Source: an uncultured Acidobacteriota bacterium
GTDB lineage: Bacteria; Acidobacteriota; Thermoanaerobaculia; UBA5066
Assembly: GCA_963779415.1 (NCBI GenBank)
Contig: CAVZYA010000001.1
Location: forward strand, 320,001 to 384,000
Direction of reading: 5' to 3'
Length of the DNA: 64,000 bases
Shown: positions 855 to 52,665 of the stretch, in pieces
Position numbering within the stretch: the first letter of the stretch is position 1
Layout of the letters: each line of letters begins with the position of its first letter
Program-made: the position numbers and the translations under genes
The notes under the pieces: generated by a model
The model's input: the letters and a program-made list of their open reading frames with translations, nothing else
What the model was told of the DNA's origin: nothing
The model's database searches: none

Positions 855-877
855 GACGATCCGAAGCCGAGGTACGC

Positions 878-2302
878 ATGTTCCATGACGTCGACGAAGC
901 GCTCCGTTACATCAGGGACCGGAAGGTCGCCATGGTGGATCTGAAGACGGCCGACCTCCTCGGCCGCTGGCGGCACATGGTCTACAAGACGGGCCACGAC
1001 GACGAGAAAATCTTCACGAAGGGGACCGGGACGAGTCTCAGCTCCTATCCGGGGTTCAAGACGATCGAGGCCGGCGACATGACGATCAAGCCGGATCCGA
1101 CGACCGGCTTCATGGATCCCTTCGCCGAAGTACCGACCCTCTGCTTCATCTGCGATATCTACAACAACGACGGGTCGCCGTTCGAGCTGGACCCGCGCTA
1201 CGTGGCGCGGAAGGCGGAGAAGTACCTCGGGAAGGTGATGCCCGGAGGCTCCACGCTCTGGGGGCCGGAGCTGGAGTTCTACCTCTTCGACGAGGTCCGG
1301 TACCAGAGCGACATCCAGCAGGCGTTCTACCGCGTCGATTCCGCCGAGTCCTACTGGAACGCCGGAAAGGAAGGGAGCCAGGGCTACAACCTCCCCTTCA
1401 CGAAAGGGAGCCAGGCCGACCTCCCGCGCGACCGGTTCTGCAACCTCCGGTCGCGGATGGTTCAGTACCTCGAAGAGGCCGGCGTCCCGATCAAGTACCA
1501 CCACCACGAGTCGGGCTCGCCCGGCCAGATGGAGATCGAGACTTACTTCACGCCCCTTCTTCAGGCCGGGGACAACGTCTTCAAGATGAAATACATCATC
1601 AAGAACGCCGCCGTTCAGGCCGGGAAGACCGCGACGTTCATGCCGATGCCGCTCTATGCCGAGTCGACGAACGGCATGCACTACCACCAGTACGTCACCG
1701 ACGGGAAGAAGTCGCTCTTCTGGGACGCCAAGGGGTACGGCGGGATGAACAGAGCGGGGCTCTCGTACATCGCCGGCATCCTGTCGCACGTCCAGGCGGT
1801 CCTCTCGCTCACGAACGGCAGCACGAACTCCTACCGCCGCCTGGGGGGCTATCGCGCGGCGCCGAACTACGTCTTCTTCTCCGTCGGAAACCGGACGGCG
1901 GCCATCCGGATCCCGGCATACGCCATCAACGAAAGGGAAGCCCGGGTGGAGTTCCGGATGCCGGACGCCACCGGGAACCCCTATCTCTCCCTCGCCGCGA
2001 TGCTGATGGCGGGGCTGGACGGCGTCGAGAAGGGCCTCGACCCGACGAAGGAGGGCTTCGGCCCCTTCGAGGAGAACTTCAACCTGCAGGAGGTCGTCGA
2101 CAAGCACAAGCTGTCGCGCGCTCCCGACAGCCTTCAGGAAGCGCTCCTCGCCCTCGAGAAGGACCACGCCTTCCTGACGAAGGAGAACGTCTTCCCGGAG
2201 GCGCTCGTCAAGGGATGGATCAATGTGAAGGAGACGCTCGAGATCGCGCCTCTCCTCAAGCGACCCCATCCGTACGAGTACGACCTCTACTACGACCTGT
2301 GA
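878..2302 (+). CDS. Glutamine synthetase type I family protein (GlnA-like, divergent ammonium site)
   Basis: GPELEFY, HHHES..QMEI, GMHYH, NSYRRL, NRTAAIRIP, VEFRMPD..NPYL, RPHPYEYDLYYD; GAGG Shine-Dalgarno upstream. Confidence 0.92.
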   Translation: MFHDVDEALRYIRDRKVAMVDLKTADLLGRWRHMVYKTGHDDEKIFTKGTGTSLSSYPGFKTIEAGDMTIKPDPTTGFMDPFAEVPTLCFICDIYNNDGSPFELDPRYVARKAEKYLGKVMPGGSTLWGPELEFYLFDEVRYQSDIQQAFYRVDSAESYWNAGKEGSQGYNLPFTKGSQADLPRDRFCNLRSRMVQYLEEAGVPIKYHHHESGSPGQMEIETYFTPLLQAGDNVFKMKYIIKNAAVQAGKTATFMPMPLYAESTNGMHYHQYVTDGKKSLFWDAKGYGGMNRAGLSYIAGILSHVQAVLSLTNGSTNSYRRLGGYRAAPNYVFFSVGNRTAAIRIPAYAINEREARVEFRMPDATGNPYLSLAAMLMAGLDGVEKGLDPTKEGFGPFEENFNLQEVVDKHKLSRAPDSLQEALLALEKDHAFLTKENVFPEALVKGWINVKETLEIAPLLKRPHPYEYDLYYDL

Positions 2303-2339: not shown

Positions 2340-2573
2340 ATGGCCGTCAAGACCATCACGATCGACGTTGAGGCCTACGAGATCCTGGCGCGCAGAAAGC
2401 GGCCCGGTCAGTCGTTCTCCGAGCTCGTCAAGATGGAGTTCGGACGAATCCGGACAGGCCGCGACCTCGCGGCGGCCCTGAACGGCATCCGCCTTTCAGA
2501 AGGGACGCTGGATGCCACGGACCGCCAGATCCGTCGGCGATCTCGGAGTCTCGCCAGAGCGCCGAAACGGTGA
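2340..2573 (+). CDS. vapB: Antitoxin, VapB/DUF217 type
   Basis: MAVKTITIDVEAYEILARRKRPGQSFSELV pattern; GTGA overlap with the downstream PIN gene. Confidence 0.8.
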   Translation: MAVKTITIDVEAYEILARRKRPGQSFSELVKMEFGRIRTGRDLAAALNGIRLSEGTLDATDRQIRRRSRSLARAPKR

Positions 2574-2974
2574 TCCACCTCGACACGTCCTTTCTCGTGG
2601 ACCTGATGAGGGAGGCCTCGCGCGGCCGCGTCGGGCCGGCAACGTCCCTCCTCCGGACGCTTCAGAACGAGGAACTGGCAATCAGCATCCACGTCGCGTG
2701 TGAACTCCGTGCGGGAGCCGAGCTTTCGAGCAACCCCGCGGAGGAGCACCTCAAGGTCGAGGCCCTCTGCCGGGGACTGGAGGTCGTCACCCCGGCCGAG
2801 ACGTTCCCGGGGATCTATGGGACTCTCCTCGCGCGTCTCGAACGGCGCGGGGAGAGGATCGCGACGATGGATCTCCTGATCGCCACGGCAGCGGTCGCTT
2901 CGGGAGCATCCCTCGTGACGCGCAATGCTCGGCACTTCGGGAGGATCTCCGAGCTTCGCCTGGCCGCTTACTGA
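2570..2974 (+). CDS. vapC: PIN-domain toxin VapC
   Basis: LDTSFLVD, conserved E, DLLIATAA, LVTRNARHF. Confidence 0.9.
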   Translation: MIHLDTSFLVDLMREASRGRVGPATSLLRTLQNEELAISIHVACELRAGAELSSNPAEEHLKVEALCRGLEVVTPAETFPGIYGTLLARLERRGERIATMDLLIATAAVASGASLVTRNARHFGRISELRLAAY

Positions 2975-2992: not shown

Positions 2993-4024
2993 TCAGCGGA
3001 TGACGGCCGAAGGATCGATGGCGACGTTGAAGAGGGCGGGGTCGTACTTGTAGCTGTTCAGGGCATCGGCGGTCTGGGGCGAGACGGTCCGGAGGAGCTT
3101 TCCGAGCGAAGCCTGGACGTCGGCGCCGATCTTCACCTTCGAGACGACCTCGACGGTGACCGACGTCGCGTTGGCGCGCCTCGGTCCTCCTTCGCGTAGG
3201 ACGAGGCTGGCCATGAGCGGATTCGGGTCGATGACGGTGACGCCCGGATAGCCGAGCCCCGCGAAGGTCTTCTTCCAGAGGTCGAGAACGTAGCCGTAGT
3301 GCGTGCAGTTGAGGCTGACGACGAGCGGGCCGGGGTTCGAAGGGAGGCGCCGGATCGCCTCGGCGACGAACGCCCGGACGTACGTCGACGTCTCCTCGCT
3401 GTCGGCCCCGCGCTCGATCGACCCCGCGAGGCGGGGGCACGACTCGCCGACGATGTGGTCGGCCGGAATCCCTTTCTCGACGAGGAGCTTCGGATAGGCG
3501 CCCGATTCGATCGTCGTCTTCGTTCCGAAGATGACGGCGGTTCCCCCCGGATTCTCTTTCATCTTCTCGCCGATCAGGTCGGCGCCCATCCCGACGATCG
3601 GGACGACTTCCGTGCCGCCCGCTTTCGCGTGCTCCGTCTTGTCGTAGAGGACCGAGAGCGTGTTGCAGGCGATGAGGAGGATGTCGGGCCTGTAGCGGCT
3701 CTCCATGGCGTCGAGGGCCGCGTCGAAGACGCGCAGCTTGTCCTTCTCGAGCTTCATGTCGTTGTAGCCGATCGCGTCGTCGAGGAGAGCGTTCACGAAG
3801 ACGATCCGGGCCGACTTCGCGATCCCGCTCGCCGGCAGCTGCGCCGCGAGCTGGGCCACGACGGAGAGCCCGCCGAGCCCCGAGTCGGTCACGACGATGG
3901 TGACGTCGGGACGCTCGCGGACGGCCTCGGCGAAGGTGGCCGGCTTCTTCCCGGCGGTCTGGCATCCGGCAAGGACGAGTGCGGCTGCCGCAAGGAGTGA
4001 ACGGGACCTCGAAAGCCTTCTCAT
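2993..4024 (-). CDS. Glutamate/aspartate racemase family protein with a lipoprotein signal peptide
   Basis: DSGLGGLSV, IACNT and LNCTHY (both catalytic Cys present); N-terminal MRR..hydrophobic..LAGC lipobox. Confidence 0.8.
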   Translation of the reverse strand: MRRLSRSRSLLAAAALVLAGCQTAGKKPATFAEAVRERPDVTIVVTDSGLGGLSVVAQLAAQLPASGIAKSARIVFVNALLDDAIGYNDMKLEKDKLRVFDAALDAMESRYRPDILLIACNTLSVLYDKTEHAKAGGTEVVPIVGMGADLIGEKMKENPGGTAVIFGTKTTIESGAYPKLLVEKGIPADHIVGESCPRLAGSIERGADSEETSTYVRAFVAEAIRRLPSNPGPLVVSLNCTHYGYVLDLWKKTFAGLGYPGVTVIDPNPLMASLVLREGGPRRANATSVTVEVVSKVKIGADVQASLGKLLRTVSPQTADALNSYKYDPALFNVAIDPSAVIR

Positions 4025-4172: not shown

Positions 4173-5939
4173 ATGATCCGTTCGAGGAATCGCATGGGCG
4201 GAAGCCTCGTCGGCCTGCCGGCAGGCGTATCCCTCGCCGTTCTCGTCCTGGCCGCATGGCCGGTCACGGTCTCGGCGCACGCCACGAACTCGAAGCTCCC
4301 GGCAAGCGTCCGTTTCCTGATCGGCGCTGCCGCGCCGCCGAGGTGGGTCGTGTCGGGCCTCGCCTATGCCGCAGGCGTACTGCCGGGATCGTTCTACGTC
4401 TCGGACGTCGTGATCGAGAACCCGAGCACGACGCAGCCGATGAGCCTTTCGCTCGCGCTCGCCGACGGGACGGCCCCCGCCTCCATGGCATGGAAGCCGA
4501 TCCAGCTCTCGCCGATGGAGAGCCGCAGCTTCTCGAACATCCTCCAGAGCTTCTTCGGAAAGGCCGCGGGAGGGCCGGCCACGACGCTCATCGTCAGGGG
4601 CGACTCCCTCCCGACGAACGCGACGCCGGTGATCTGGGCGTCGACGTACAACAACAACGGCGGCGACCCGACGAAGGGAACCTACGGGGTCGCGATTGCG
4701 GCCGTTCCCCTCTCGGCGGCCGTCTCGACCGCTTCGTCCAGGGCTCTCACGGAGATCCCGGGTCTGCGTGACGTTCCGGACTATTCCAGCCGGAGCTCGC
4801 TCGTCGCGTATCCGAACGTCTCCCCGGCCTACACGAACGTCGGGTTCGTGAACCCCGGCAGCGTCCCGGCGACTCTGAAAGTCGACTTCACCTCCTCCAG
4901 CCTCGCGACGATCTCCAAAGAGCTCGGCTCGGAGGTGACCCTGACGCTCAGCCCGAACGAGACGAGGCAGATCACGAAGGCGCTCACGAGACCCGTTCCG
5001 ACCGGAGCGGCGTGGAACGTCATCAGCCAACCGGAGGCAAACTACCTGATGACGGTGAGCGTGGCGGCCGGCGGTATGGTCGTTCCCTACGCTTCGGTCA
5101 AGGACATCGGCTCGTCCGACTCGGTCTTCATGACGAGCGACGGTGCGGTCTCGACGACCTACCGGGTCCCGGCCGTCGTCCGTGCGAACGGCCAGCACGG
5201 GACGGTCTTCCGGAGCCGTCTCGTCCTCTTCAACCCTTCGGGAGCGACGCGCGCCGTGCAGCTCTCCTTCTCATACCTGAAGTGCGTGCGCGGTACCTCC
5301 ACATGCGATCCGCGGAAGGTCGTCGCGGGAAACCTCACGCTCCTCTCCGGGCAGGCGGTCATCTTCGAGGACTTCGTGGGGGAGTGGCTGACCCAAAACG
5401 GCCTCGCCGTCGACGATGGAAGCGACTACACGACGTCGTTCATCGACATCTCGGGCGCCGACCCGAACACCGACCCTCTCCTCGTCCGGGCCGAGACTTA
5501 CAACGCCACGCCGACCGGAAACTTCGGGACGCAGATTCCGGGGTTCGTCGCGTCGATCCACGGGGCCTCGGCGGCGGCCGGAGGACCCGGCAGCCGTCTT
5601 CTGATCCCGCGCGCGGTTCCGAACGGCGGGACCAGCGGCTTCCGGACGAACGTGGCCCTCGTCCTCCTTGCCGGGGCGACCGGTACCGCGAAGGTGCGGC
5701 TCTACCCGAGCGCTGGCGGACTTCCTGCTCTGCCGGACGTCTCTCTCACCGTCACAGCTGCAGAGCCCTTTCTCCAGCGGTCGCTCGAAAACCTCTTTCC
5801 GGCGATCACGTCGTCAGGAGCTGGAAAGAAGTATTCCATCGAGATCGTGGTCACGAGCGGGACGATCGGCGGGTACACGTCGATCAACGACAACGTCACC
5901 GGCGACTCGTCGGTGATCGTGGCCCGCCCGCAGCAATAG
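4173..5939 (+). CDS. Secreted beta-rich protein with two related internal modules
   Basis: Signal peptide (..VLAAWPVTVSA); repeated module GSFYVSDVVIENPS..YTNVGFVN..YASVKD..SSD versus GTVFRSRLVLFNPS..FRTNVALV..YTSINDN.TGD. Confidence 0.75.
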   Translation: MIRSRNRMGGSLVGLPAGVSLAVLVLAAWPVTVSAHATNSKLPASVRFLIGAAAPPRWVVSGLAYAAGVLPGSFYVSDVVIENPSTTQPMSLSLALADGTAPASMAWKPIQLSPMESRSFSNILQSFFGKAAGGPATTLIVRGDSLPTNATPVIWASTYNNNGGDPTKGTYGVAIAAVPLSAAVSTASSRALTEIPGLRDVPDYSSRSSLVAYPNVSPAYTNVGFVNPGSVPATLKVDFTSSSLATISKELGSEVTLTLSPNETRQITKALTRPVPTGAAWNVISQPEANYLMTVSVAAGGMVVPYASVKDIGSSDSVFMTSDGAVSTTYRVPAVVRANGQHGTVFRSRLVLFNPSGATRAVQLSFSYLKCVRGTSTCDPRKVVAGNLTLLSGQAVIFEDFVGEWLTQNGLAVDDGSDYTTSFIDISGADPNTDPLLVRAETYNATPTGNFGTQIPGFVASIHGASAAAGGPGSRLLIPRAVPNGGTSGFRTNVALVLLAGATGTAKVRLYPSAGGLPALPDVSLTVTAAEPFLQRSLENLFPAITSSGAGKKYSIEIVVTSGTIGGYTSINDNVTGDSSVIVARPQQ

Positions 5940-5979
5940 TCGCTCATCCTCGCCAGGAGACCCGGCCCCGTATCGCGGG

Positions 5980-6480
5980 TCAGCGCCCCGGTGCCCGCGC
6001 CTCGGCCCGGGAAAGACGAGACTCCAGCTCCGACAGCCTTGCTCTCACGTCTTCGCTCTCTCGCACCCGGGTTTTGGGGGCATTGATCTCGGCTCGCTGT
6101 GCCTCGATGTCCTGCGCCACGAACCCCATGTCGATCCGTCCGTTGCCATCCCGAAGCCGGTACTCCACGGGCCGCAGCGCGAGGACGAAGTCGAGGCCGA
6201 GAAGGACGTCGCGCCGGTTCTGCGGCCAACGAACGCGTTGTAGGACGCCGTGTACTGCAGCGCCTCGAAGGCGAGGAGCGTGTAGTCCTTCTGTCCGAGC
6301 GTCATCCCGGAGTGGTCCTTGAGGGCGACGTGGACGGTGGCCGGACCGCCCACGATGTTGACCATCCCGAAGTGGTGGCGGAAGTTCTCGTTCGATCCCT
6401 GGGTGATCCCCTGAAGCTGGGAGGTCTCGCCGGGGCCGATGGCGAACGTGGCCGCCCTGCGCACGCGAGACGGCCCGCTT
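5980..6480 (-). pseudogene. Relic of a secreted protein with a C-terminal peptidase S74 (intramolecular chaperone)-like domain
   Basis: Two minus-strand frames: FAIGPGETSQLQG..NFRHHFGMVN..TVHVALKD.SG, then LGLDFVLALRPVEYRL..GFVAQDIE plus a coiled coil; no credible start. Confidence 0.55.
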
Positions 6481-6540
6481 CCGAGGAGGAAAAGGATCTC
6501 CGCGGGTAAGATGCCGCGCGCGAAGGATGAGACCGGCACC

Positions 6541-9500
6541 ATGAAAAACAGCTCTGCCGGCACTACCGCCCCCCGACGAACCTTCCTCGACCCCCATGGT
6601 CTCTCGGCGCGCGCTCTTTCCACGCCCGAGCCGCTCGTCCGCGCCTTCGCGCGGCGGGTCCAGCAGGAAGGGGCGCTGGACCTGACCCAGGGGGACTACA
6701 AGAACGCCGACTTCGCGCCGCACCCGGAAGTCGTCCGCGCGGCCCAGCGGATCACCCGGAACACCGTCCACAGCTACGGGCCGGCCGTCGGCCGGATGGA
6801 CGTGCGGGGGGAGATCGCCGACTTCTTCAACCGCGACGGGCTTCTCGACTACCCCTCCTCGAACGTCCGGTTCCTCCCGGACGAGGTTCTCTTCACCCCC
6901 GGGACGCGCTCGGGCCTCGCGATGGCGCTCGAGGTGCTCGGGGCGGACGGATCGGGCGTGGTGGTCCCGCGCCCGAGCTGGGAATACGACTGGTTCGTCG
7001 AGCGCGCCGGGAAGCGCCTCGTCGAGCTGCCGACGAGCTCTCCCGAGTTCCTTCCCGATCCGGACGAGCTGGAGCGGCTCCTCGAAAAGGGCGACATCTC
7101 GTCCGTCATCATCAACAACCCGCACAATCCGACGGGACGGGTCTACCCGCGGTCGCTCGTCGAGGCGCTCGTCCGGGTCGCGGTGAAGCACCGCGTCTTC
7201 GTCCTCTACGACTCCGTCTACCAGCGCCTCGACTATGTCGGCTCGTTCGTGAATCCCGCCTTTGCCGACCCCGAGTGGCGCGACTGGGTCGTCACCCTCT
7301 CGGGGCTTTCCAAGATGGACATGTTCGGCGCCTCGACGGGGGCCCGGGCATGCTGGCTCGTCCTCTCGGACCAGATCCGTTCGGGCGGGGTGCGCGCGAG
7401 GGAGATTCTCGCGAACCTCTCGGCATGGCTCGTTGCGACCCCCTCGACACTGGCGCAGGACTGGGCGCTCGCGGCGCTCCAGAGCCCCCTGGCGGCGCTC
7501 CGCCGGCCGTCTCCATACATGCGGGAACGGCGCGACTTCATGGCCGAAGGGGCGGACGCGCTCGCGCCTCTCGGGGTTACGCGGACCGACTTCGGCGGGA
7601 CGTTCTACGCCCCTCTCGCCTTCCCGGGCCTCGTCGGCGAGCCGTTCGACCGGCTTCGCAACGGCATCCACGAGCGGGCCGTCGTCCGGACGTCGGTCGA
7701 GGCCTTCGAGTTCCTTCTCGCGGGGGCCGTGGGAGGGATCCCGTTCGCTGCCTTCGCCGGCTCCGACCCGGACCGGTACGGGACGTGGCAGCGCCTTTCG
7801 TACGGCTCGAAGGACGTGAAGGAGCTGGCCGTCTTCATGGAGCGCGTCCGCGCCCGGATCGAGCGGCAGGGGCGCCTCGGGTCGAGCGCGAAGGCCGAAA
7901 CCGCCGTCCGGACCGTGGAGGACGAGGTCTGGGAGAGCACCTGCACCGACGCGGGATACCCGGCTCTCGACGGGCTCGACCCGATCGCGTTTGCCGAGGC
8001 GCACCGAAAATTCCGGGAGGGCTCCGCGCCGGAGACGCTCCGGTCGCTTCGTCTCACGGGGACGAAGCATCCGGATTCCACGGCGCATCGGGCCGAGCAG
8101 CTCGCGCGGGCGATCCGCTCGGTCGAAGCCGGAACGCCGAACCGCGCCGAGCGGGCGCTGACTCATCTCGAATGGAATCCGCTCGTCGAGGCCCGGCAGG
8201 AATACGAGGAGTCGATCGCCGACCTCCTCGGCCCCTGCACCGAAGTGCTCCTCGACTACGAGGGGCGCCAGATCAGCCCGGAGTGGCTGGACGTCCCGGA
8301 GAAGGTCGTCCTCGCCCTTCTCCGCCACGGAATCCTCCCGGGGGAGGACCGGCATCTCCTCTTCCGAGTCCCGAATCCCTGGCTCGAGCAGGACGAGGAG
8401 AAGGTCTCGAAGATCCTCGCCGCGGTCGCGCGGACGAACTTTCTCTTCCTCCTCGCCTGCGAGCGGCTCGGGATCGAGCCCGCGCGCAACGCCATCAACG
8501 AGCTGACCGTTCCCCAGGTGAACTCCGGGGCGGAGCTGGGGGCGGTGGTGAAGATCGGGACGCTCTACCTGCAGGCGGCCGAGGGGCTCTTTTCGGGCGC
8601 CCCGGAGCGCGTCGACGACTTCCTCCGGAGCCGCATTCCCGAATCGCGCCGTGCGGCCCTCACGGCGAAGGTCTCCCGCGTCCGGCTCGTCCCGCTCGTC
8701 GAGAACGTCGGCGCGCTCGCGCACCTTCCCGAGTTCCTCGAGATCTTCTACGAGACTCTGGAGCGGAACCGGGGGGCGGAAGGGCTCCCGACGCCGGCCT
8801 CGTTCCGGACGCGATTCGACGGCTCCGACGCCGTCGTCCGGATCTTCGTCGCGATGTCCGACACGGCCGAGCAGAGCGGGAAGATCGCCACCGACGCGGC
8901 CTTCACTCTCGCGGTGGCCGGGCGGGAGGAGGCGGAGAGACGTCTCGCCGGACACGCCCGGAAGGCGGGGGAGCCGCCGCCGCGCGTGACGTACCTGATC
9001 GGAGCGGGGGGCGCGGGCTTCCGCGGCGGCTTCGATCCGTCGCACGAAGGAGTCATCGCCCAGTTCGCCCGGGCCGACGGCGTCACGATGCAGGGGATCC
9101 GGGCCGACGCTCCCGAGAAAGCCGCTCGGCTCGCCGAGGCCTTCCGCCGCGTGGCGGAGGCCGGAAGCCCGGTGCCGCCGGTCTCCGCCGGGGACCGGGA
9201 GTCGCTCCTCAGGCTCCTCGAAACGGGAGTGAAGGCCCACACGGAGACGCTCCTCCGGATCGCACCGCTCATCGCCCCCTTCAGCGGCCTCGTGCCGCAG
9301 ACGCGCGTCCGGATCCGGGCGACCGGCTCGGTCAACTACGGCCGGTCGATCCCGACCTATCCGGAGGAATGGGGGGGCGGGAAAGACCTCCCCGACAACC
9401 GGGATCTCCGCGACGCGTGGCCGGAGGGGGTGACTCTGCCCCGTGCCATCAACTACAACCTCGGCTGCACGACGCTGGGCCTCCCCGCCGTGACGAGCGA

Positions 9501-10137
9501 CCTTCTGGCGCTCGACAAACGGGCCGCCGTCCTTTTCGGGCGGCAGGTCCCGGGGTACCGGGAGATCCTCGCGAGCGAGCTGCCTTACTTCGTCCGCGAG
9601 TCGGTCGCGCTCGTCTTCGGACGAAAGCTCGCGGAGGCGACGGCGCGGCGGTGCCTCCGGGCGACGGCGGCGCTCTGGATCGACGCGCGCGTCCGCGAGG
9701 AGATCGTCGCGCCGACCTGCCTCTTTTCGATGCTCTACCTCCGGTACGTCGCCGAGGAGTCGGAGAGCTGGGACGAGACGAAGGAGCACGAGAGCCGGAC
9801 GACCCGCGAGGAGGAGCTTCTGCGCGAGACGGCGAGCGGCGCTTTCGGCGCTCTCTCCGCGGAGCGCCCCGGTGACCGGTGGACGCTCCTCCAGTCGCTG
9901 ATCGACGTGGAGGAGGCCTCGCGCCTCCTTCTCGCGCGGGAGCTGACGATCGAGGAGAAGCGGGAGTTCGTCGATCTCCGGATCGAAGGGTGGCTCCGGA
10001 CGCTCCCCGAGAGCCTCTCGCGGGATCTGCGGCGCGACTGGTCCCCGCTTCGGGAGCTTCCGAAGGCCGACCTGACGCTGCGCACCATCGAGCAGATGAT
10101 CGAGCTCGAGAAGCTCCGCGGGAGCCGTGGCGCATGA
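6541..10137 (+). CDS. Fusion of a class I/II PLP aminotransferase (N-terminal) and an archaeal-type PEP carboxylase PpcA-like domain (C-terminal)
   Basis: Aminotransferase motifs NNPHNPTG, YDSVY, SGLSK, RLSY; PpcA motifs TKHPD, LDYEGR, RVPNP, LVPLVE, SDTA, IGAGGAGFRG, LPRAI, terminal KLRGS. Start may be 6511 or 6541. Confidence 0.85.
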   Translation: MKNSSAGTTAPRRTFLDPHGLSARALSTPEPLVRAFARRVQQEGALDLTQGDYKNADFAPHPEVVRAAQRITRNTVHSYGPAVGRMDVRGEIADFFNRDGLLDYPSSNVRFLPDEVLFTPGTRSGLAMALEVLGADGSGVVVPRPSWEYDWFVERAGKRLVELPTSSPEFLPDPDELERLLEKGDISSVIINNPHNPTGRVYPRSLVEALVRVAVKHRVFVLYDSVYQRLDYVGSFVNPAFADPEWRDWVVTLSGLSKMDMFGASTGARACWLVLSDQIRSGGVRAREILANLSAWLVATPSTLAQDWALAALQSPLAALRRPSPYMRERRDFMAEGADALAPLGVTRTDFGGTFYAPLAFPGLVGEPFDRLRNGIHERAVVRTSVEAFEFLLAGAVGGIPFAAFAGSDPDRYGTWQRLSYGSKDVKELAVFMERVRARIERQGRLGSSAKAETAVRTVEDEVWESTCTDAGYPALDGLDPIAFAEAHRKFREGSAPETLRSLRLTGTKHPDSTAHRAEQLARAIRSVEAGTPNRAERALTHLEWNPLVEARQEYEESIADLLGPCTEVLLDYEGRQISPEWLDVPEKVVLALLRHGILPGEDRHLLFRVPNPWLEQDEEKVSKILAAVARTNFLFLLACERLGIEPARNAINELTVPQVNSGAELGAVVKIGTLYLQAAEGLFSGAPERVDDFLRSRIPESRRAALTAKVSRVRLVPLVENVGALAHLPEFLEIFYETLERNRGAEGLPTPASFRTRFDGSDAVVRIFVAMSDTAEQSGKIATDAAFTLAVAGREEAERRLAGHARKAGEPPPRVTYLIGAGGAGFRGGFDPSHEGVIAQFARADGVTMQGIRADAPEKAARLAEAFRRVAEAGSPVPPVSAGDRESLLRLLETGVKAHTETLLRIAPLIAPFSGLVPQTRVRIRATGSVNYGRSIPTYPEEWGGGKDLPDNRDLRDAWPEGVTLPRAINYNLGCTTLGLPAVTSDLLALDKRAAVLFGRQVPGYREILASELPYFVRESVALVFGRKLAEATARRCLRATAALWIDARVREEIVAPTCLFSMLYLRYVAEESESWDETKEHESRTTREEELLRETASGAFGALSAERPGDRWTLLQSLIDVEEASRLLLARELTIEEKREFVDLRIEGWLRTLPESLSRDLRRDWSPLRELPKADLTLRTIEQMIELEKLRGSRGA

Positions 10138-29727: not shown

Positions 29728-32700
29728 ATGTTCCTCTCGAACCTCTCCATCAAGAAGCCGGTCTTCGCGACCGTCCTGATGCTCGCCCTCCTGACGCTCG
29801 GGCTCTTCTCGTACCGGCGGCTCGCCATCGAGCTGATGCCCGACGTCGAGCTGCCGATCCTGACGATCACGACGGAGTTCCCCGGCGCCTCGCCCGAGGC
29901 CGTGGAGCGCGAGCTGACGAAGAAGATCGAGGAAGCCGTGAACCCGATCTCCGGCGTGAGGCACGTCTACTCGACGTCGCGCGAGAGCCTCTCCTCGGTC
30001 ATGGTGGAGTTCCAGCTCCAGGTCCGGATCAACGAGGCCTCGCAGGAGGTCCGCGCCAAGATCAACGCGGTCCGGCGCGAGCTGCCCGAGCAGATCAAGG
30101 AGCCGGTCATCCAGAAGATGGACATCGGCGGGATGCCGGTCGTGGCGCTGGCGGTCCGCTCCGGAACATTGACGCCGCGCGATCTGACGACCCTCGTCGA
30201 CCGGAAGGTGAAGCGGCGCCTCGAGAACATTCCGGGCGTCGGGAAGGTCCGGCTCGTCGGAGCGTCCCGGCGGGAGGTGAACGTCCTCGTCGACCCGGCG
30301 CGGATCGAGGCGATGGGGCTCGGCGTCGACGAGGTGATCGCGGGCCTCGCCGCCGAGAACGTCAACACGCCGCTCGGGCGGCTGAACCGGCTGGGGAGCG
30401 AGATCCCGCTCCGGATCTCCGGGAAGCCGACGCTGGTGCCGGGCTTCGAGTCGATGGTCATCGGCCGCCGCGGCAGCCACCCGGTCACCCTCGGCGAGGT
30501 GGCGACGGTCGTGGACGGGATCGAGGAACTGCGCTCGCTCGCCCTCGTCAACGGGGTCCCCGCCGTGGCGCTCGAGGTCCTGAAGCAGTCGAAGGCGAAC
30601 ACCGTCGGCGTCGTCGACGCCGTCAAGCGCGAGGTCGACCGGCTGAAGCCGGAGCTTCCGCCCGGAACCCAGATCGAGATCGTCCGGGACGCCTCCGTGA
30701 TGATCCGCGAGTCCGTTTCCGACGTGCAGACGACGCTCGTCATCGGCGGCCTCCTGACGATCCTGATCGTCTTCTGCTTCCTCAACTCGTGGCGCTCGAC
30801 GGTCATCACGGGGCTGACGCTCCCGATCTCCGTCATCTCGTCGTTCATCGCCATGTACTTCTTCGGGATGACGCTGAACGTCATGACTCTGATGGCGCTT
30901 TCGCTCGCCATCGGTCTCCTGATCGACGACGCGATCGTCGTCCGCGAGAACATCGTCCGGCACCTCGAGCACGGCGAGGACCACATGGCCGCGGCCCGGA
31001 ACGGGACGGCCGAGATCGGCCTCGCCGTCCTCGCGACGTCCCTCTCGATCATGTCGGTCTTCGTCCCGGTCGCCTTCATGAAGGGGATCGTCGGGCGCTT
31101 CTTCTTCCAGTTCGGGATCACGGTGGCGTTCGCGGTCATGGTCTCCCTCTTCGTCTCCTTCACCCTCGACCCGATGCTCTCCTCTCGCTGGGTCGACCCG
31201 GACGTCGAGCGGAAGGGGAAGAGGCACGCCGTGGCGCGCGTCCTCGACCGGTTCAACTCCTGGTTCGACCGGACCGCGGACCGATACAAGACGCTCGTCG
31301 GCTGGGCGCTCGACCGGCGCAAGCTCGTCCTCGGCGTCGCCACGGCGGCCTTCGTCGCCGGCCTCGGCCTCTTCGCCTTCCTCGAGGCGGAGTTCTTCCC
31401 GGCGTTCGACCAGGGCGAGTTCATGGTCCGGTTCAAGACGGCGCCGGACGCCTCGATCGAGGAGACGAAAGGGCGTCTGAGCGTCGTCCTCGGCGAGCTG
31501 AAGGCGATTCCGGAGATCGAGCACACCTACGCGGCGATCGCCGCCGGCGAGTCGGACACCGTCCGGAACGCGACGGTCTACGTGAAGCTGAAGGAGACGT
31601 CGGAACGGAAAAGGAACCAGTACGCCGTGATGCGCGACGTCCGCTCCAGGCTCGCGGGAATCCCGGGGCTGATCCCCTCCGTGGAAGAGGATCCGGACAA
31701 CTTCCAGAAGCCGTTCATCGTCCTCGTCCGGGGCGAGGAGATCCCGAAGCTGAAGGAGTACGCGGCGGCCCTGAAGAAGTCTCTCTACGGCATCACGGGG
31801 ATCGTCGACCTCGAGGCGACGCTCGAGCAGGACCTTCCGGAGTACCGCCTCACCGTGGACCGCCAGCGGGCGCGGGACGCGGGCCTCGGCACCGACGCGC
31901 TCGTGAGGACCGTCGGCGCCCTCGTCGGAGGGCAGATCGTCTCGACGTACGAGGACGACGCCGGCGAAGCGGTCAACGTCCGGATCCGCCTTCCGGAAGG
32001 GCTCCGGGAAGACGTCCGCCAGGTCGGGCAGCTCCGGATCGCCGTCTCCGGCCCGTCCGGCGACGCGCTCGTGCCGATCGCCGACCTCGTCAAGGCGGAG
32101 CGGACCGTCTCTCCTTCGGAGATCAGCCGGCAGGACCTCTCCCGACAGGTCGTCCTTTCGGGGAACCTCGACCGTCTCCCTCTCGGCACGGCGGCGGAGA
32201 CGGCCCTCCGGGAGGCCGCGAAGATCCCGATGTCGCCCGGCTACCGCGTCGTCATGTCGGGCGACACGGAGATCATGGAAGAGTCGTTCGGCTACCTCGC
32301 CGAGGCGCTCGTCCTCGCCATCGTCTTCGTCTACCTGATCCTCGCGGCGCAGTTCGAGTCGTTCATCGACCCGCTCGCCATCATGCTGTCGCTCCCGCTC
32401 TCGATCGTCGGGATGGCCGGGATGCTCGTCCTGACGCGCGACACCGTCAGCATCATGTCGCTCATCGGGCTCATTCTCCTGATGGGGCTCGTCACGAAGA
32501 ACGCGATCCTCCTCGTCGACTACACGAAGGTCCTGAGACGGCGGGGAATGGACCGCCGGAGCGCGCTGATCACGGCCGGCCGGACGCGGCTCCGTCCGAT
32601 CCTGATGACGACCCTCGCGATGATCTTCGGGATGCTGCCGCTGGCCCTCGCGATCGGGCAGGGGGCGGAGATGCGGGCGCCGATGGCGCGAGCGGTCATC

Positions 32701-34140
32701 GGCGGGCTCGTCACGTCGACCCTCCTGACGCTCGTCGTCGTGCCGGTCGTCTACACCCTCCTCGACGACTTCGCCGAGTGGCTCCACAGGCGCTGGTCGA
32801 AGGCGAATGCCCTCGCCGCGGACTCGACGGGCCCCGTACCGGCTCTCCCGCCCGTCGCCAGGTCTATCGTTCTTCTGGCCCTCCTTCTCCCGTCGCTCGC
32901 CGCGCGCGCGGAGAGTCCCGTGGTCCCGATCACCCTCGACGAGGCGGTGCGGCTCGTGCAGGAGAAGAACCGGGACATCCAGAAGGCGAGGGCGTACCAG
33001 GAGTGGGTGCGCGGGAAGTACGTCGAGGAGCGCGCCGCGGCCCTCCCGAGCCTCGCGCTCCTCGGCGGCGGCGTCCGTTCCTGGGACGAGAGCTACCGGG
33101 TCATCTTCGGCGACTTCTACCCTCCGGGCCAGAACCTCGCGACCGCCGACGTGAACCTGACGCAGGCGCTCTTCACCTGGGGGCAGGTGGGCGCGGGGAT
33201 CCGGGCCGCGAAGCGAGGGATGGCCGCCGCGGACGAGCAGCTCGACTCGGCCCGGCAGGCGGCGATCCGGGACGTCACGGCCGCGTTCTACGACGTCCTT
33301 CTGGCCCGCCGGATCGAGAAGATCGCCCGCGAAAACCTCGCCCAGCGGGAGCGGCATCTTGCCGAGGCGAGAAACCGGCAGCTCCTCGGAACGGCGACCG
33401 ACTACGACGTCCTGGCGGCCGAGGTCGCCGTGGAAAACGCCCGCCCGGCGGTCATCAGGTCCGTGAACCTCGTCCTGACGGCCCGCGAGAGGCTCCGCCT
33501 CGTCCTCGCGGACGAGCGCCGCGAGCTGGACGCCGAGGGAACGCTCGACACGGAGGTCACGGACCCGCCGCCTTACGAGGACGCCCTCCGGACTGCGATC
33601 GAGCGAAGGCCCGACCTGAAGGCCCTCCGGCAGCGGGTCGAGGTCTTCCGCGAGTTCGTGAAGATCCAGGCCGCGGGGAACAAGCCGCGCCTCGACCTCC
33701 GAGCCGGTGCGGGCTGGAAGTGGCTCGATGCGAGCGGGCTGACCGGAGACGGCAAGACCTGGAACGCCGGCCTCTACATGTCGTTCCCCTTCTTCGACGG
33801 CCTCGCGACGCAGGGAAAGGTGATCGAGGCGAAGAGCGACGTCTCGACGTCGCAGATCGACCTCGCCAAGGCCGAGGACGGCGTCCGTCTCGAAGTCCGG
33901 ACGGCCGTCGACTCGGTCCGCGAGAGCGCGCTCATCGTCCGCGCGCTGACCGGAACGGTGAGCCAGGCGCGGCGGCTCCTTCAGATGTCCGAGAAGGGAT
34001 TCGAATTCGGCGTGAAGACCCGGCTGGAGGTGGACGACGCGCAGCTGGCGGTCGTCCAGGCCGAGGGGAACCTCGCGACCGCCACGCGCGATCACCTCGT
34101 GGCGTGGGTGACGCTCCGGTACGTACAGGGCCTGCTCTGA
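29728..34140 (+). CDS. RND efflux permease (AcrB-like) fused to a TolC-family outer membrane factor
   Basis: GLLIDDAIVVREN, KNAILLVD, RLRPILMT; after ~aa 1050, ITLDEAV..N..I and TolC-type repeats ending EFGVKTRLEVDDAQ. Confidence 0.9.
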   Translation: MFLSNLSIKKPVFATVLMLALLTLGLFSYRRLAIELMPDVELPILTITTEFPGASPEAVERELTKKIEEAVNPISGVRHVYSTSRESLSSVMVEFQLQVRINEASQEVRAKINAVRRELPEQIKEPVIQKMDIGGMPVVALAVRSGTLTPRDLTTLVDRKVKRRLENIPGVGKVRLVGASRREVNVLVDPARIEAMGLGVDEVIAGLAAENVNTPLGRLNRLGSEIPLRISGKPTLVPGFESMVIGRRGSHPVTLGEVATVVDGIEELRSLALVNGVPAVALEVLKQSKANTVGVVDAVKREVDRLKPELPPGTQIEIVRDASVMIRESVSDVQTTLVIGGLLTILIVFCFLNSWRSTVITGLTLPISVISSFIAMYFFGMTLNVMTLMALSLAIGLLIDDAIVVRENIVRHLEHGEDHMAAARNGTAEIGLAVLATSLSIMSVFVPVAFMKGIVGRFFFQFGITVAFAVMVSLFVSFTLDPMLSSRWVDPDVERKGKRHAVARVLDRFNSWFDRTADRYKTLVGWALDRRKLVLGVATAAFVAGLGLFAFLEAEFFPAFDQGEFMVRFKTAPDASIEETKGRLSVVLGELKAIPEIEHTYAAIAAGESDTVRNATVYVKLKETSERKRNQYAVMRDVRSRLAGIPGLIPSVEEDPDNFQKPFIVLVRGEEIPKLKEYAAALKKSLYGITGIVDLEATLEQDLPEYRLTVDRQRARDAGLGTDALVRTVGALVGGQIVSTYEDDAGEAVNVRIRLPEGLREDVRQVGQLRIAVSGPSGDALVPIADLVKAERTVSPSEISRQDLSRQVVLSGNLDRLPLGTAAETALREAAKIPMSPGYRVVMSGDTEIMEESFGYLAEALVLAIVFVYLILAAQFESFIDPLAIMLSLPLSIVGMAGMLVLTRDTVSIMSLIGLILLMGLVTKNAILLVDYTKVLRRRGMDRRSALITAGRTRLRPILMTTLAMIFGMLPLALAIGQGAEMRAPMARAVIGGLVTSTLLTLVVVPVVYTLLDDFAEWLHRRWSKANALAADSTGPVPALPPVARSIVLLALLLPSLAARAESPVVPITLDEAVRLVQEKNRDIQKARAYQEWVRGKYVEERAAALPSLALLGGGVRSWDESYRVIFGDFYPPGQNLATADVNLTQALFTWGQVGAGIRAAKRGMAAADEQLDSARQAAIRDVTAAFYDVLLARRIEKIARENLAQRERHLAEARNRQLLGTATDYDVLAAEVAVENARPAVIRSVNLVLTARERLRLVLADERRELDAEGTLDTEVTDPPPYEDALRTAIERRPDLKALRQRVEVFREFVKIQAAGNKPRLDLRAGAGWKWLDASGLTGDGKTWNAGLYMSFPFFDGLATQGKVIEAKSDVSTSQIDLAKAEDGVRLEVRTAVDSVRESALIVRALTGTVSQARRLLQMSEKGFEFGVKTRLEVDDAQLAVVQAEGNLATATRDHLVAWVTLRYVQGLL

Positions 34141-48588: not shown

Positions 48589-49813
48589 ATGAGCATCAGC
48601 CATCTCGCAAGGTCCATCGCTGAGTCGCCGACGCTCCGCCTGAACGAGGAGGCGCGGCTTCTTCGGGAGAGGGGCGAGCCCGTCATCCACCTCGGAATCG
48701 GCGAGCCGAAGAACAAAGCCCCGATCAGCGCGATCCTCGGCGCCGCGGGGAAGCTCTTCGCCGGCGACGTGAAATACACGCCGACGGACGGCCTCCCGTC
48801 GCTCAAGAAGGCGATCCTCCGGTACACGGAGGAGAACTACGACCGGGTGATCGCCCCGGAGAACGTCATCGTCTCCGAGGGGGCGAAGCAGTCGCTCTTC
48901 AACGTCCTCTACTCGATCCTGAACCCGCAGGACGAGGTGATCGTCCTCGCCCCGTACTGGGTCAGCTATCCCGAGATCGTGAAGATGGTGCAGGGGGTGC
49001 CGGTCGTCGTGACGCCGGAGGACGGCAGCTTCGTCCCGCAGTTCTCCGAGATCGAACGGGCGGTCTCTTCCTCCACGAGGGCGATCCTCCTGAACAGCCC
49101 GAACAACCCTTCGGGCGCCGTCTTCCCCGAGGCGCTGGTCTCGAAGCTCGTGGAGTTCTGCGAGAGGAAGGGGATCTGGCTGATCACCGACGACATCTAC
49201 CACAAGCTCGTCTTCGACGGGAAGGTCGCCGTCCCCGCGTGGCGATACACGCCGAAGGACGTCGAGACGTCGAAAGTGATCGTCGTCAACGGCGTCTCGA
49301 AGATCTACGGGATGACCGGATTCCGGATCGGCTGGGTGGTCGCGAACCGGGAGCTGGTCCGGATCATGACGAACGTGCAGGCGCAGACGACCTCTTGCGT
49401 GGCAACGGTCTCGCAGGCGGCGGCGGAGGGGGCGCTGACGGGCCTCCAGAGCTACGTCGAGATCTCTCCGCCTCACGCATCCAGAACAACCGCGACGTCC
49501 TGCTGCAGGAGATCCGGACCTTCACGGGACGTGAAGACGGTCGAAGCCCGAGGGAACGTTCTACGCGCTCCCCGACTTCCGCGCCTACGCGAATGGGATC
49601 CGTCGCGATGTCGGAGCTTCTTCTCAAGAAGGCGATGGTCGTCACGGTGCCGGGCAAGCGAATTCGGGATGGAAGGGCACCTCCGCCTCTCGTTCTCGGG
49701 CTCGGTGAAGGAGATCACCGGAGGGGATCGCCCGGATGAAGTGGGCGCTCGATCCCTCGTCCCCGAACGAGATCTACATCGGGGAACGGAAGCTCGTGAG
49801 GGACTGGCTGTGA
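48589..49813 (+). CDS. Class I/II (aspartate-type) aminotransferase; several apparent frameshifts after ~49460
   Basis: GIGEP, NSPNNPSG, DDIY, NGVSKIYGMTGFRIG; C-terminus (FGMEGHLRLSF..KLVRDWL stop) recoverable across frames. Confidence 0.9.
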
Positions 49814-51460
49814 ACAACATCCTCGACATCAGGACCCCGGCCGAAGGGCGAGGCCCAGGCGCGGAAGGCCGACTACGGCCTCGCCTACCTCGGCCTCTCG
49901 AACCTCCGGAAGGTCTACTGGAACCTTCCGACCGAGGCCCTCTACGAGGAGATCATCTTCCGGCGCGAAGGGCGGATCGCCCGTCGGGCGGCCCGGTCGT
50001 CGTCGACACGGGGAAGCACACGGCCCGCGCCGCGAACGACAAGTTCGTCGTCCGCGAGGAGGACTCGGAGGGGCACATCTGGTGGGGCGTCGTACAACCG
50101 CCCGCTCGCCCCGGAGAAGTTCGACGAGCTCTTCGGCCGGCTGCAGGGGTACCTGCAGGGGCGCGACCTCTTCGTCCAGGACTGCTTCGGCGGTGCCGAC
50201 CCCGACTACCGGCTCCCGGTCCGGATCGTCACCGAGCAGGCGTGGCATCGCCTCTTCGCCCGGAACATGTTCCTGAAGCCCCGGACCGCACGACGAATAC
50301 CGGCGCCACGTCCCGGAGTTCACGGTCCTCTGCGTCCCCGGCTTCAAGGCCTTCCCGCCCGTCGACCAGACACCCTCGGAGACCTTCATCGTCCTCAACT
50401 TCGCCCGCCGGATCTGCCTCATCGGGAACACCGGCTACGCGGGGGAGGTCAAGAAGTCGGTCTTCACGATCCTGAACTACCTCCTCCCGCTCGAGGGGGT
50501 CATGACGATGCACTGCTCGGCGAACGTCGGGAAGGACGGGGCCACCGCGCTCTTCTTCGGCCTTTCCGGGACCGGGAAGACGACGCTCTCGGCGGACCCG
50601 AACCGGGGCCTGATCGGCGACGACGAGGCGGGGTGGAGCGACAAGGGGATCTTCAACTTCGAGGACGGCTGCTACGCGAAGGTCATCGCTCTTTCCGCCG
50701 CGGCCGAGCCGCAGATCTGGGCGACGACGCGCCGCTTCGGGACGATCCTCGAGAACGTGATGTTCGATCCGGTCACGAGGCTGATCGACCTCGACGACGA
50801 CCGCCGGACGCGAAAACACGCGCGCTTCGTACCCTCTCGACTTCATCGAGAACGCCGTCCGAGAGCCGGATGGGCGGGCATCCCCGAAGAACATCATCTT
50901 CCTGACGTGCGACGCCTCCGGGGTGATGCCGCCGATCGCGAAGCTGTCGCCGGACCAGGCGCTCTACCACTTCATCTCGGGCTACACGTCGAAGATCGCC
51001 GGGACCGAGATCGGCCTCGGCAAGGAGCCCGAGATCACCTTCAGCGCCTGCTTCGGCGGGCCGTTCATGGTCCACACCCCGTACACCTACGCGAAGCTCC
51101 TCCGCGGAGAAGATCGAACGGCACGGCGTCGACTGCTGGCTGGTGAACACCGGATGGGTCGGCGGGCCGTACGGCATCGGAAAGCGGATCAGCATCCGGT
51201 ATACGCGGGACCTTCTGAACGCGGCGCTGGACGGAAAGCTGAAGGACGTGGAATACCAGGCCGACCCGGTTTTCGGCTTCGCGGTCCCGAAGAGCTGTCC
51301 GGGGGTCCCCGACCACGTCCTGAAGCCGGCCGACGCGTGGCACGACAAGGCCGAGTACATGAAGAAATACAGGCAGCTCGCCGCGCGCTTCATCGAGAAC
51401 TTCCGGAAGTTCGAGGGAGAGACGCCGGCCGAAATCGTGGCGGCGGGTCCGAAGATCTGA
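49810..51460 (+). CDS. pckA: Phosphoenolpyruvate carboxykinase (ATP); multiple apparent frameshifts
   Basis: [71 protein letters not shown] spread over the three frames. Confidence 0.93.
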
Positions 51461-52665
51461 TGGGGTTTCGCTTCTCCCGCCGTGCCTCTTCCGTCGCCCC
51501 CTCGGCCACGCTCGAGGTCCTGCAGGCCGCGGCGTCGCTCCGCGAGCGGGGCGTCGACGTCGTCGATCTCGGCCCCGGCGAGCCCGACTTCCACACGCCG
51601 GAGTTCGTCAAGGAAGCGGCCATCGCGGCGATCCGCGCGAACTTTACGAGGTACACGGACGTCTTCGGCATTCCCGAGCTTCGCTTCGCGGTCTCGGACC
51701 ACTACCGCAGGGCGTGGGGGAGCCCGTGGGGCCCGCGGAACGTTCTCGTCACCGCCGGTGGGAAGCAGGCCCTCCACACGGCGTGTCTCGCCCTCTTCGA
51801 GGAGGGGGACGACGTGCTGGTTCCCCGTCCCTACTGGGTCTCGTTCCCCGAGATGGTGAAGCTGGCCGGGGCGAGGCCCGTCTTCGTCCCGACGAGCCCG
51901 GAGAACGGCCACCGGCTCCGGGCCTCCGACGTCGAGCGGAGCGCGACCGACGCGACGCGGGGCGTCATCCTCAACTCACCGAACAACCCGACGGGCGCCG
52001 TCATGGAGGCGGGGGAGATCGAGAAGATCGTCCGCCTCGCTGCGGACCGGGGGTGGGTCGTTATCTCGGACGAGTGCTACGACCGGCTCGTCTACGAGGG
52101 AAAGCACTTTTCGGCGGCCGCGCTTGGCGATCGGTACCCGAAGACGGTCCTCGTCTGCGGGTCGCTCTCGAAGACGTTCGCCCTGACGGGCTGGCGGATC
52201 GGCTTCGCCCTCGGCCACGAGGAGCTGGTCGCGATGATGGGGCGGCTCGTCTCGCACGCCACGACGAACGTCTGCTCGATCACCCAGCGGGCTGCGCTCG
52301 CGGCCCTCACCAGCCCGGACGAGGCGGAGGCCGCCACGCACGCGATGTTCCGCGAGTACGCGAGGCGGCGGGACTTCCTGATCCCGGCTCTCGCCTCCCT
52401 CCCCGGAGTCCGCTGCGCCCCCCCGGGGGGCGCCCTCTACGCCTTCCCCGACGTCTCCGCGCACTTCGGAAAGCGGCTCGGAGGGATCGACCTGACCGGC
52501 TCGGCCCCCTTCGCGAGGGCGCTTCTCGATACCGTCGCCGTCGCCGTCACCCCCGGCATCGCCTTCGGCGACGACCGCGGCGTCAGGCTCTCCTTCGCCA
52601 CCTCGATGGAGCGGCTCGAGGAAGGGATCGCCCGGATCCGGAAGGCGCTGGGGGAGATCGGTTGA
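51460..52665 (+). CDS. Class I/II (aspartate-type) aminotransferase
   Basis: [44 protein letters not shown]; TGATG coupling with pckA. Confidence 0.93.
52580..52665 (+). repeat. Direct repeat copy 1 (3' end of the aminotransferase gene)
   Basis: GCGTCAGGCTCTCCTTCGCCACCTCGATGGAGCGGCTCGAGGAAGGGATCGCC-CGGATCCGGAAGG matches 53438-53524. Confidence 0.85.

Follow-up and report, generated by a model that had tools for sequence, protein, structure and literature searches.

A candidate single-polypeptide route from phosphoenolpyruvate to aspartate: an aminotransferase joined to a long-form PEPcase_2 domain in uncultured bacteria

We wanted to know whether one gene of an uncultured Acidobacteriota bacterium really joins an aminotransferase to a phosphoenolpyruvate (PEP) carboxylase (PEPC) and, if it does, what reaction the joined protein might carry out. 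The gene lies at nucleotides 6541–10137 (+ strand) of a 64,000-nucleotide stretch of contig CAVZYA010000001.1 (GenBank assembly GCA_963779415.1, positions 320,001 to 384,000), which we call the window. The original prediction for this locus described a single uninterrupted open reading frame (ORF), and this is what we find: 1198 codons run from the ATG at 6541 without an internal stop to a TGA at 10135–10137. The listed ORF around the gene is 6439–10137 on the + strand, with alternative in-frame ATGs at 6439 and 6511; we favor the start at 6541 because of the lengths of the homologues (1178–1230 aa) and because an identical protein of 1198 aa is on record in a database. The G+C content at third codon positions (GC3) is 0.90 in a window with 67.8% G+C, as expected of a coding frame. 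The motifs quoted in the original prediction are all present and in the order given, with the correction that the lysine motif reads SGLSK (SxxSK) and not SxSK. In the N-terminal half they are NNPHNPTG (residues 192–199), DSVY (224–227), SGLSK (254–258), and RLSY (418–421). In the C-terminal half, where similarity to PEPC had been placed from about nucleotide 8050 onward and does set in with TKHPD (508–512, nucleotides 8062–8076), the motifs continue with LDYEGR (571–576), GILPGED (597–603), RVPN (609–612), AINELTVP (651–658), VRLVPLVE (714–721), FVAMSDTA (769–776), IGAGGAGFRG (820–829), LPRAI (966–970), TLGLP (978–982), and KLRGS (1191–1195).

The fused frame recurs in many independent assemblies. 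A search with the full-length protein in a collection of 5.8 billion proteins returned 427 proteins at E ≤ 1e-3 among 8000 scored, and each of the 120 best relatives, 1122–1230 aa in length, carries both PF00155 and PF14010, at 77–100% identity over 94–100% of the query; these proteins come from NCBI, JGI, ENA, and Logan assemblies. When 185,579 prokaryote species were scanned, each represented by one genome, 169 stretches matched and 140 encode a relative. The best 80 of these 140, to which the following counts refer, are near-full-length copies 69–83% identical to the query, each with a match that spans query residues ≤256 to ≥859, and in 76 of them the match is single, unbroken, and longer than 1000 residues. 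At the DNA level, seven other genomic copies read through the junction without stops. Among sampled genomes, the fused gene was present in 6 of 401 from the phylum, where contig ends interrupt one copy, and in 8 of 61 from the class; the latter include every one of the seven searched genomes from the window's own family. The alternative is that the frame is an assembly chimera, or the product of a lost stop or frameshift that joined two neighboring genes. It draws some plausibility from the same assembly, which does hold frameshifted genes (the ATP-dependent PEP carboxykinase (ATP-PEPCK) gene at about 49910–51313 is split over several frames and is intact in a genome of the same genus), and from a few database relatives that are split or truncated. 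The recurrence of the same fused frame and junction in the best database relatives from four assembly sources, and in the species genomes and DNA-level copies above, speaks against it, as do the seeming stand-alone halves themselves. These we rejected as contig-end fragments or frameshift products, as they start or end inside domains or carry Arg/Ser-rich out-of-frame tails (e.g. P0251); two others, P0305 and P0317, hold scraps of PF00155 only. A genuine split form may exist in some lineage. Of the sequencing runs listed, each contained at most 0.17 of the sampled words and none was an RNA run; contigs of four runs yielded at ≥85% likeness short pieces of relatives only, none over nucleotides 7981–8100, and one run contig that aligned on both sides of the junction with an unknown stretch between says nothing for or against it. 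Because the same frame and junction occur in so many independent assemblies, we set the artefact aside; for practical purposes it is already refuted, and the fusion frame is confirmed as real.

The C-terminal half matched Pfam PEPcase_2 (PF14010) at residues 548–1031 (3.4e-33, 115.4 bits against a gathering cut-off of 25; profile positions 23–440 of 493), and the only protein returned by a PDB sequence search was the C. perfringens PEPC, 3odm (4e-13). In an AlphaFold2 (AF2) model of the whole protein, built on an 81-row alignment (predicted local distance difference test (pLDDT) 76.7; predicted template modeling (TM) score (pTM) 0.70), pLDDT is mostly above 90 over residues 461–1198, with dips below 50 at 926–934 and 1075–1085, and Foldseek placed 3odm chains as the best PDB matches of this half (E 1.5e-19, TM (target) 0.74–0.78). 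Compared with the canonical archaeal-type PEPC, PpcA, of 500–545 aa, the half contains insertions and an expanded C-terminal helical region at residues 1031–1198. An HMMER search with this half of 1.84 billion representatives gave 130 matches, among which we found one fused full-length representative (P0121, 64% identity) with many fragments, long unfused relatives at 27–31% identity (P0163, 905 aa; P0168, 930 aa; and P0234, 1037 aa, which is labelled as a Candidatus Micrarchaeota PEPC), and 27 canonical PpcA (452–548 aa, 25–33% identity), with no complete stand-alone copy of the half among the 130. The PF14010 scores are 360–381 bits for canonical PpcA, about 110–115 for the fusion, and 85–120 for the long unfused forms.

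We then took the 59 columns in which at least 90% of the 27 canonical PpcA representatives agree and compared 120 fused proteins with them. In 45 of the 59, the fused proteins keep the canonical residue. Where the conserved residue is His, Asp, Glu, Lys, or Arg, 19 of 20 columns are identical (H510, D512, E554, E557, E568, D572, E574, R609, E721, R767, D774, R828, R854, D856, R922, R924, R935, R968, and R1193) and the remaining one is a Lys to Arg change (K576R); G1197 is also kept, and T(Q/K)HPD has an invariant histidine. An hhalign alignment to E. coli Ppc (91.7% probability; E. coli residues 467–813) puts E721, D774, R828, and R968 on E506, D543, R587, and R713, which we take to be metal ligands and essential arginines of the E. 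coli enzyme. Judged by these residues, the active site of the PEPC half looks intact. The R to M change in the ARSD motif, which in the original prediction left room for a different substrate, falls on a column that is less than 90% conserved in PpcA and is Tyr in E. coli.

The N-terminal half matched Pfam Aminotran_1_2 (PF00155) at residues 46–340 (6e-33, 114.9 bits against a gathering cut-off of 19.7), reaching profile positions 4–285 of 361 only. The best solved relative by sequence is the T. thermophilus aspartate aminotransferase (AspAT) 1bkg (2.5e-28), followed by other class Ib aspartate/prephenate aminotransferases. The full-length AF2 model is poor over this half because the alignment is shallow there; a second model of residues 1–460 with a broader alignment (pLDDT 73.2, pTM 0.76) gave Foldseek TM scores of 0.77–0.83 to the T. 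thermophilus AspAT and a fold of type I. The residues assigned to pyridoxal phosphate (PLP) binding and catalysis are Y79, W147, N196, D224, Y227, K258 (the Schiff-base lysine), R269, and R418; when the half is aligned with 18 aminotransferases that stand alone, Y79, D224, Y227, and K258 never vary, and conservation of N196, R269, and R418 is at least 90%. They make up the complete set that a functional class I transaminase should have: the Schiff-base Lys, the Asp to the pyridine N, Asn, Tyr, and the Arg residues for the phosphate and the alpha-carboxylate. Further, R123 (in TPGTRSG) aligns with the Lys of the class Ib GGKQA motif, a Lys that presumably holds the distal carboxylate of dicarboxylic substrates. 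Counting by offset, this Lys is K169 of the prephenate aminotransferase from Arabidopsis, which is mutated in PDB 5wmk together with one other residue; the excerpted passages of PMC4927141 and PMC9309667 do not settle the role of the GGK lysine. For both halves, the domain identities put forward in the original prediction hold by Pfam, PDB sequence search, and fold.

We think it on balance probable that the fusion is a bifunctional enzyme that converts PEP, bicarbonate, and glutamate into aspartate, 2-oxoglutarate, and phosphate, where we infer the substrates, the order of the reactions, and the product. The gene product of ~130 kDa would use its C-terminal long-form PEPcase_2 domain to convert PEP and bicarbonate into oxaloacetate and phosphate at a metal- and arginine-lined site, and its N-terminal PLP domain, built like a class Ib AspAT, to convert oxaloacetate and glutamate into aspartate and 2-oxoglutarate. 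Given that both activities exist, the labile oxaloacetate might be passed directly from site to site, a purely inferential step that we regard as possible and somewhat doubtful. A review from 2020 on the PEP-pyruvate-oxaloacetate node, which also summarizes the three-step mechanism of PEPC, describes PEPC as irreversible and, for the archaeal-type enzyme, names aspartate as an inhibitor that competes with PEP (PMC8100219); the inhibition claimed in the original prediction is borne out by that source for archaeal-type PEPC. Aspartate made by the fusion would in this way feed back on the PEPC half. In its most elaborate form, the proposal would be a dedicated "aspartate synthase" in which aminotransferase dimers and PEPC oligomers share one assembly, oxaloacetate is never released, and aspartate throttles the PEPC, the whole having arisen on a deep long PEPcase_2 branch and spread horizontally among uncultured soil and sediment bacteria, in some of them beside an ordinary PEPC; we hold this complete picture to be unlikely.

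Both halves are held by purifying selection, the aminotransferase half most strongly, as determined by Nei-Gojobori dN/dS over 21 pairs of 7 genomes (Table 1). The segment of residues 446–505 that joins them is 50–63% identical in 20 cross-genus pairs and 96% identical in the one within-genus pair (G154-G417). In the full-length model, pLDDT falls below 50 at 448–454 and residues 461–490 form blocks at 90–95. Between the folds, the model predicts disorder only at about 448–460, with residues 461–500 packing confidently with the PEPC domain. The constraint on the aminotransferase half bears on a second rival, in which the C-terminal half is a working PEPC and the aminotransferase-like domain would serve as a PLP-binding sensor or scaffold that reads aspartate or glutamate and thereby tunes the PEPC, in analogy with ME-PTA (below) or the aminotransferase-like domains of MocR/GabR regulators. 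We consider this quite improbable: each residue that transamination requires is conserved (K258, D224, N196, Y227, R269, R418, and Y79), not merely those of PLP binding, and no other part of the protein is under stronger constraint than this half. A sensor could nevertheless look like this, as the lysine is retained in GabR too. On the side of a sensor stand a match of this half to a MocR-like NCBIfam model (YczR, 59.6 bits), the stand-alone AspAT-like genes that its own genome already has, and the malic enzyme-phosphotransacetylase (ME-PTA) precedent in the excerpted node review (PMC8100219).

Several observations weigh against the aspartate-forming reading, and some of them favor a rival in which both domains are catalytic and one or both act on substrates different from those assumed, for example by hydrolyzing PEP to pyruvate with subsequent formation of alanine, by accepting another enol-phosphate or electrophile, or by an aminotransferase acting on another keto acid; taken jointly, we rate these alternatives as improbable. 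First, in a tree of 10 fused C-terminal halves (chosen from 121), 3 long forms, and 27 canonical PpcA, a branch with SH-aLRT 99 separates the 27 canonical proteins from the fused clade (support 100, stem length 1.33 changes per column), which lies beside the long forms of 905–1037 aa. The PEPC half scored 108.7 bits on the NCBIfam PEPC equivalog TIGR02751, under its cut-off of 146.05, and the fused family differs at 14 of the 59 columns conserved in PpcA; two of the changes, Q509K and K576R, lie beside catalytic motifs, the others being M506T, M570L, T607L, I819L, P826G, G844R, T847G, a one-residue deletion, Y900H, Y977T, P983A, and L1196R. By sequence, the C-terminal half is a member of the PEPcase_2 family and not a canonical PpcA; its original description as PpcA stands for Pfam family, fold, motif order, and charged residues, and fails at the equivalog cut-off and at the clade. 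A bolder variant would be that the long PEPcase_2 branch carboxylates no PEP with bicarbonate at all. Against other substrates for this half speak the 20 conserved charged columns and the four E. coli active-site equivalents that are kept, together with the invariant histidine.

Second, the aminotransferase half lies under every NCBIfam equivalog cut-off, and its top NCBIfam match is not an AspAT but GntC, a non-transaminase PLP enzyme. The four models named aspartate aminotransferase or transaminase gave 48–80 bits against cut-offs of 550–624, with 69–80 bits for the three that matched over their full length (NF041091, 79.5 against 550; NF004769, 68.7 against 617; and NF006229, 48.4 against 624 as a partial match). 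Family-wide insertions lie around the active site, at 100–106, 259–261 (MDM, directly after K258), 281–287, and 374–389. A word-indexed search found no stand-alone relative of this half above ~29% identity, the closer matches all being fragments of the fused family. Given the low NCBIfam scores, the insertions, and this isolation in sequence, the substrate pair proposed for the aminotransferase half is a putative one. On the side of a dicarboxylic substrate stands the basic R123 at the position of the class Ib Lys. Third, the gene context gives no functional clue: of 7 other genomes, none has a window neighbor next to the fusion, and neighbors are shared only between two genomes of one genus. 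Nor does any neighborhood point to a secondary-metabolite or other pathway, which speaks against the rival with other substrates. Fourth, all 80 listed carriers of the 140 relatives are metagenome-assembled genomes.

The last set of points against the aspartate-forming reading comes from the metabolism of the hosts. A canonical PEPC (PF00311) was also found in 2 of 14 carriers searched (2 of 5 in a further set), intact ATP-PEPCK in 3 of 5 carriers searched, and stand-alone AspAT-like genes in the fusion's own genome, so that the fused aminotransferase is not needed there for aspartate synthesis as such. The two PF00311-bearing carriers are the genomes of loci L082 and L090 (G427 and G428), which have Gammaproteobacteria/Steroidobacteraceae labels, and one of them has two PF00311 copies; as PF00311 is present, the fusion is an addition in these genomes, not a replacement. 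The co-occurrence with a canonical PEPC in the further set suits a specialized role under the rival with other substrates; the presence of fusion and ordinary PEPC together fits a dedicated aspartate-forming role and equally fits a different chemistry. The metabolic need seen in other genomes speaks for the aspartate-forming reading. The fusion's own genome (4.36 Mb, 3 contigs, 92.4% complete) has the fusion gene as its sole PF14010 match, and profile searches of it found no PF00311, PYC_OADA, or PEPCK_GTP match. The carrier G154 (99% complete) gave no match to PF00311, PEPCK_ATP, PEPCK_GTP, or PYC_OADA, and the fusion is the only C3-C4 link found in it, malic enzyme having been outside the search. 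We also considered whether the fusion and canonical PEPC are complementary in their distribution, since within the class PF00311 was seen in none of the 8 carriers and in 9 of the 53 non-carriers. We rejected this, as the sample is too small and confounded by kinship and as the two further carriers above do have PF00311.

By the labels of their submitters, the best 80 of the 140 carriers comprise 45 Acidobacteriota (Thermoanaerobaculia, Holophagae, and Vicinamibacteria), 20 Pseudomonadota, which are mostly Steroidobacteraceae-like Gammaproteobacteria, 6 Myxococcota plus one Bradymonadales, 4 Chloroflexota, 2 Eisenbacteria, 1 Actinomycetota, and 1 Methylomirabilota. We built a FastTree phylogeny from 77 full-length rows, leaving out four loci (two truncated at the end of a contig and two whose match came in 2–3 separate parts). 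In it, a single clade with support 95 unites 17 Gammaproteobacteria rows and sits among the rows of Acidobacteriota; the Myxococcota rows also group together. As far as bin labels, which can be wrong, and a FastTree topology allow, it looks as if the fusion spread horizontally and was then retained vertically.

The coordinates of the parts of the fusion gene and of other features of the window are collected in Table 1.

Table 1. Parts of the fusion gene, dN/dS along its product, and other features of the window
Feature	Residues	Position (nt)	Strand	Basis or remark	dN/dS
Whole fusion gene		6541..10137	+	ORF; identical 1198-aa protein on record	
Fold-type I, class I aminotransferase-like domain	~20-447	6598..7881	+	PF00155, 1bkg match, AF2/Foldseek	
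Short variable connector	~448-460	7882..7920	+	Low pLDDT in full-length model	
PEPcase_2-type (archaeal-type PEPC-like) domain, long form	~461-1198	7921..10134	+	PF14010, 3odm, Foldseek	
Aminotransferase half	20-445				0.06-0.17
PEPC core	506-1030				0.15-0.30
C-terminal region	1031-1198				0.06-0.35
Segment 446-505	446-505				0.07-0.82
Glutamine synthetase (GlnA)		878..2302			
PIN-domain gene		2570..2974	+		
Asp/Glu/hydantoin-racemase family gene		2993..4024	-	343 aa	
Upstream ORF		4173..5939	+	588 aa; coding statistics good (GC3 0.86); no Pfam match	
Gap		5940..6540		600 bp	
Antisense ORF		6045..6623		192 aa; GC3 0.83; overlaps start of fusion gene	
HtrA-like protease ORF, first possible start		10127		GTG; overlaps last codons of fusion by 11 bases	
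Long ORF		29728..34140	+	1470 aa; GC3 0.95, highest of the window	
AspAT-like gene, ATP-PEPCK gene, second AspAT-like gene in a row		48589..52662	+		

The neighbors of the fusion gene in the window are an M20 peptidase, GlnA, a PIN protein, the Asp/Glu-racemase-like gene, the unknown 588-aa ORF, HtrA, an S9 peptidase, and an acyl-CoA dehydrogenase (ACAD). Glutamine synthetase and the M20 peptidase lie upstream of the PIN-domain gene, which abuts the racemase family gene, and this nitrogen-metabolism neighborhood is not conserved beside the fusion elsewhere. The true start of the HtrA-like ORF may lie further down than the first possible one. We also note that the AspAT-like genes in the row with ATP-PEPCK have the NCBIfam model asp_aminotase_Arch as their best match, at 260 and 348 bits, both under the cut-off. 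The ATP-PEPCK gene of the window is spread over frames 3, 1, 2, and 3, and the first aminotransferase no longer matches beyond profile position 266; all three genes are intact in G420 (L130; 99% complete), a genome of the same genus, and the aminotransferase-PEPCK pair is also present in G056 (L132). The frameshifts in the window may be assembly indels or signs of a decaying copy. The row itself looks like a separate module leading from aspartate through oxaloacetate to PEP, a mirror image of the fusion.

With regard to earlier work, the original prediction knew of no described fusion of this kind. This holds for the literature, where a full-text search, which missed most subscription journals and supplements, found no paper describing an aminotransferase-PEPC fusion, and it does not hold for the databases, in which the architecture is already recorded under the automatic names "phosphoenolpyruvate carboxylase" or "aminotransferase/phosphoenolpyruvate carboxylase". 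The node review, in the parts available, lists four PEPC types and no aminotransferase fusion, and the sole fused enzymes there are ME-PTA and components of the phosphotransferase system (PTS) (PMC8100219); a family-wide PEPC phylogeny paper contains neither "aminotransferase" nor "fusion" in its text (PMC3521007). That no cultured carrier is among the 80 listed fits this lack of literature. Both chemistries are textbook; the single-polypeptide arrangement and the long PEPcase_2 branch are uncharacterized. If both activities are confirmed, the whole way from PEP, bicarbonate, and glutamate to aspartate would lie on one natural polypeptide, with an irreversible CO2-fixing step coupled to the removal of its unstable product. 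The fusion would then form a fifth architectural type of PEPC beside the four of the node review, offer a natural test case for oxaloacetate channeling, and give metabolic engineers a compact building block for aspartate-family production or C4-like modules. Further, it would correct the annotation of a family now called either "PEP carboxylase" or "aminotransferase" and change how anaplerosis is reconstructed for uncultured Acidobacteriota, Steroidobacteraceae-like Gammaproteobacteria, and Myxococcota. The fusion also flags the uncharacterized long-form PEPcase_2 branch, and the function of the long unfused forms bears directly on that of the fusion.

We finally compared the fusion with the known systems that it resembles. 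With archaeal-type PEPC (PpcA/PepcA, atPEPC; PF14010, TIGR02751; 3odm), it shares the Pfam family, the fold, the motif order, and the conserved charged residues. It differs in having TKHPD for TQHPD, EGR for EGK, and a fused aminotransferase, and in size: its domain takes up ~738 residues of a 1198-aa protein, whereas the known enzymes are, in the passages of the node review on this type, monomers of 55–60 kDa that assemble into homotetramers (PMC8100219). The long forms P0163, P0168, and P0234 are the nearest branch to the C-terminal half, set apart jointly with it from canonical PpcA at SH-aLRT 99, and P0163 and P0168 have TKHPD, DYEGR, and a P-Q-(I/V)-N motif, as the fusion does; all three lack an aminotransferase domain, and they are only 27–31% identical to the fusion's C-terminal half. 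The class Ib AspAT and prephenate aminotransferases (1bkg/1gck; Arabidopsis enzyme 5wmh/6f5v) are the best matches of the N-terminal half in both sequence and fold and have the same full PLP/catalytic set. In contrast to them, the N-terminal half is only ~26–30% identical, has Arg for Lys in the GGK motif and a 3-residue insertion after the catalytic Lys with three further insertions, and is never found alone.

As separate enzymes, PEPC and AspAT serve anaplerosis and aspartate synthesis and catalyze the first two steps of aspartate-forming C4 photosynthesis. The net chemistry proposed for the fusion is the same, from PEP and bicarbonate through oxaloacetate to aspartate, but there it is divided between two proteins, with a PEPC of the PF00311 bacterial/plant type that is unrelated in sequence, and here it would reside in one polypeptide. 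The malic enzyme-PTA fusion, as described in the excerpted review (PMC8100219), is comparable in that both proteins are enzymes of the node with a whole second enzyme-like domain attached; the extra domain of ME-PTA is non-catalytic and exerts allosteric control, whereas the extra domain of the fusion keeps all of its catalytic residues.

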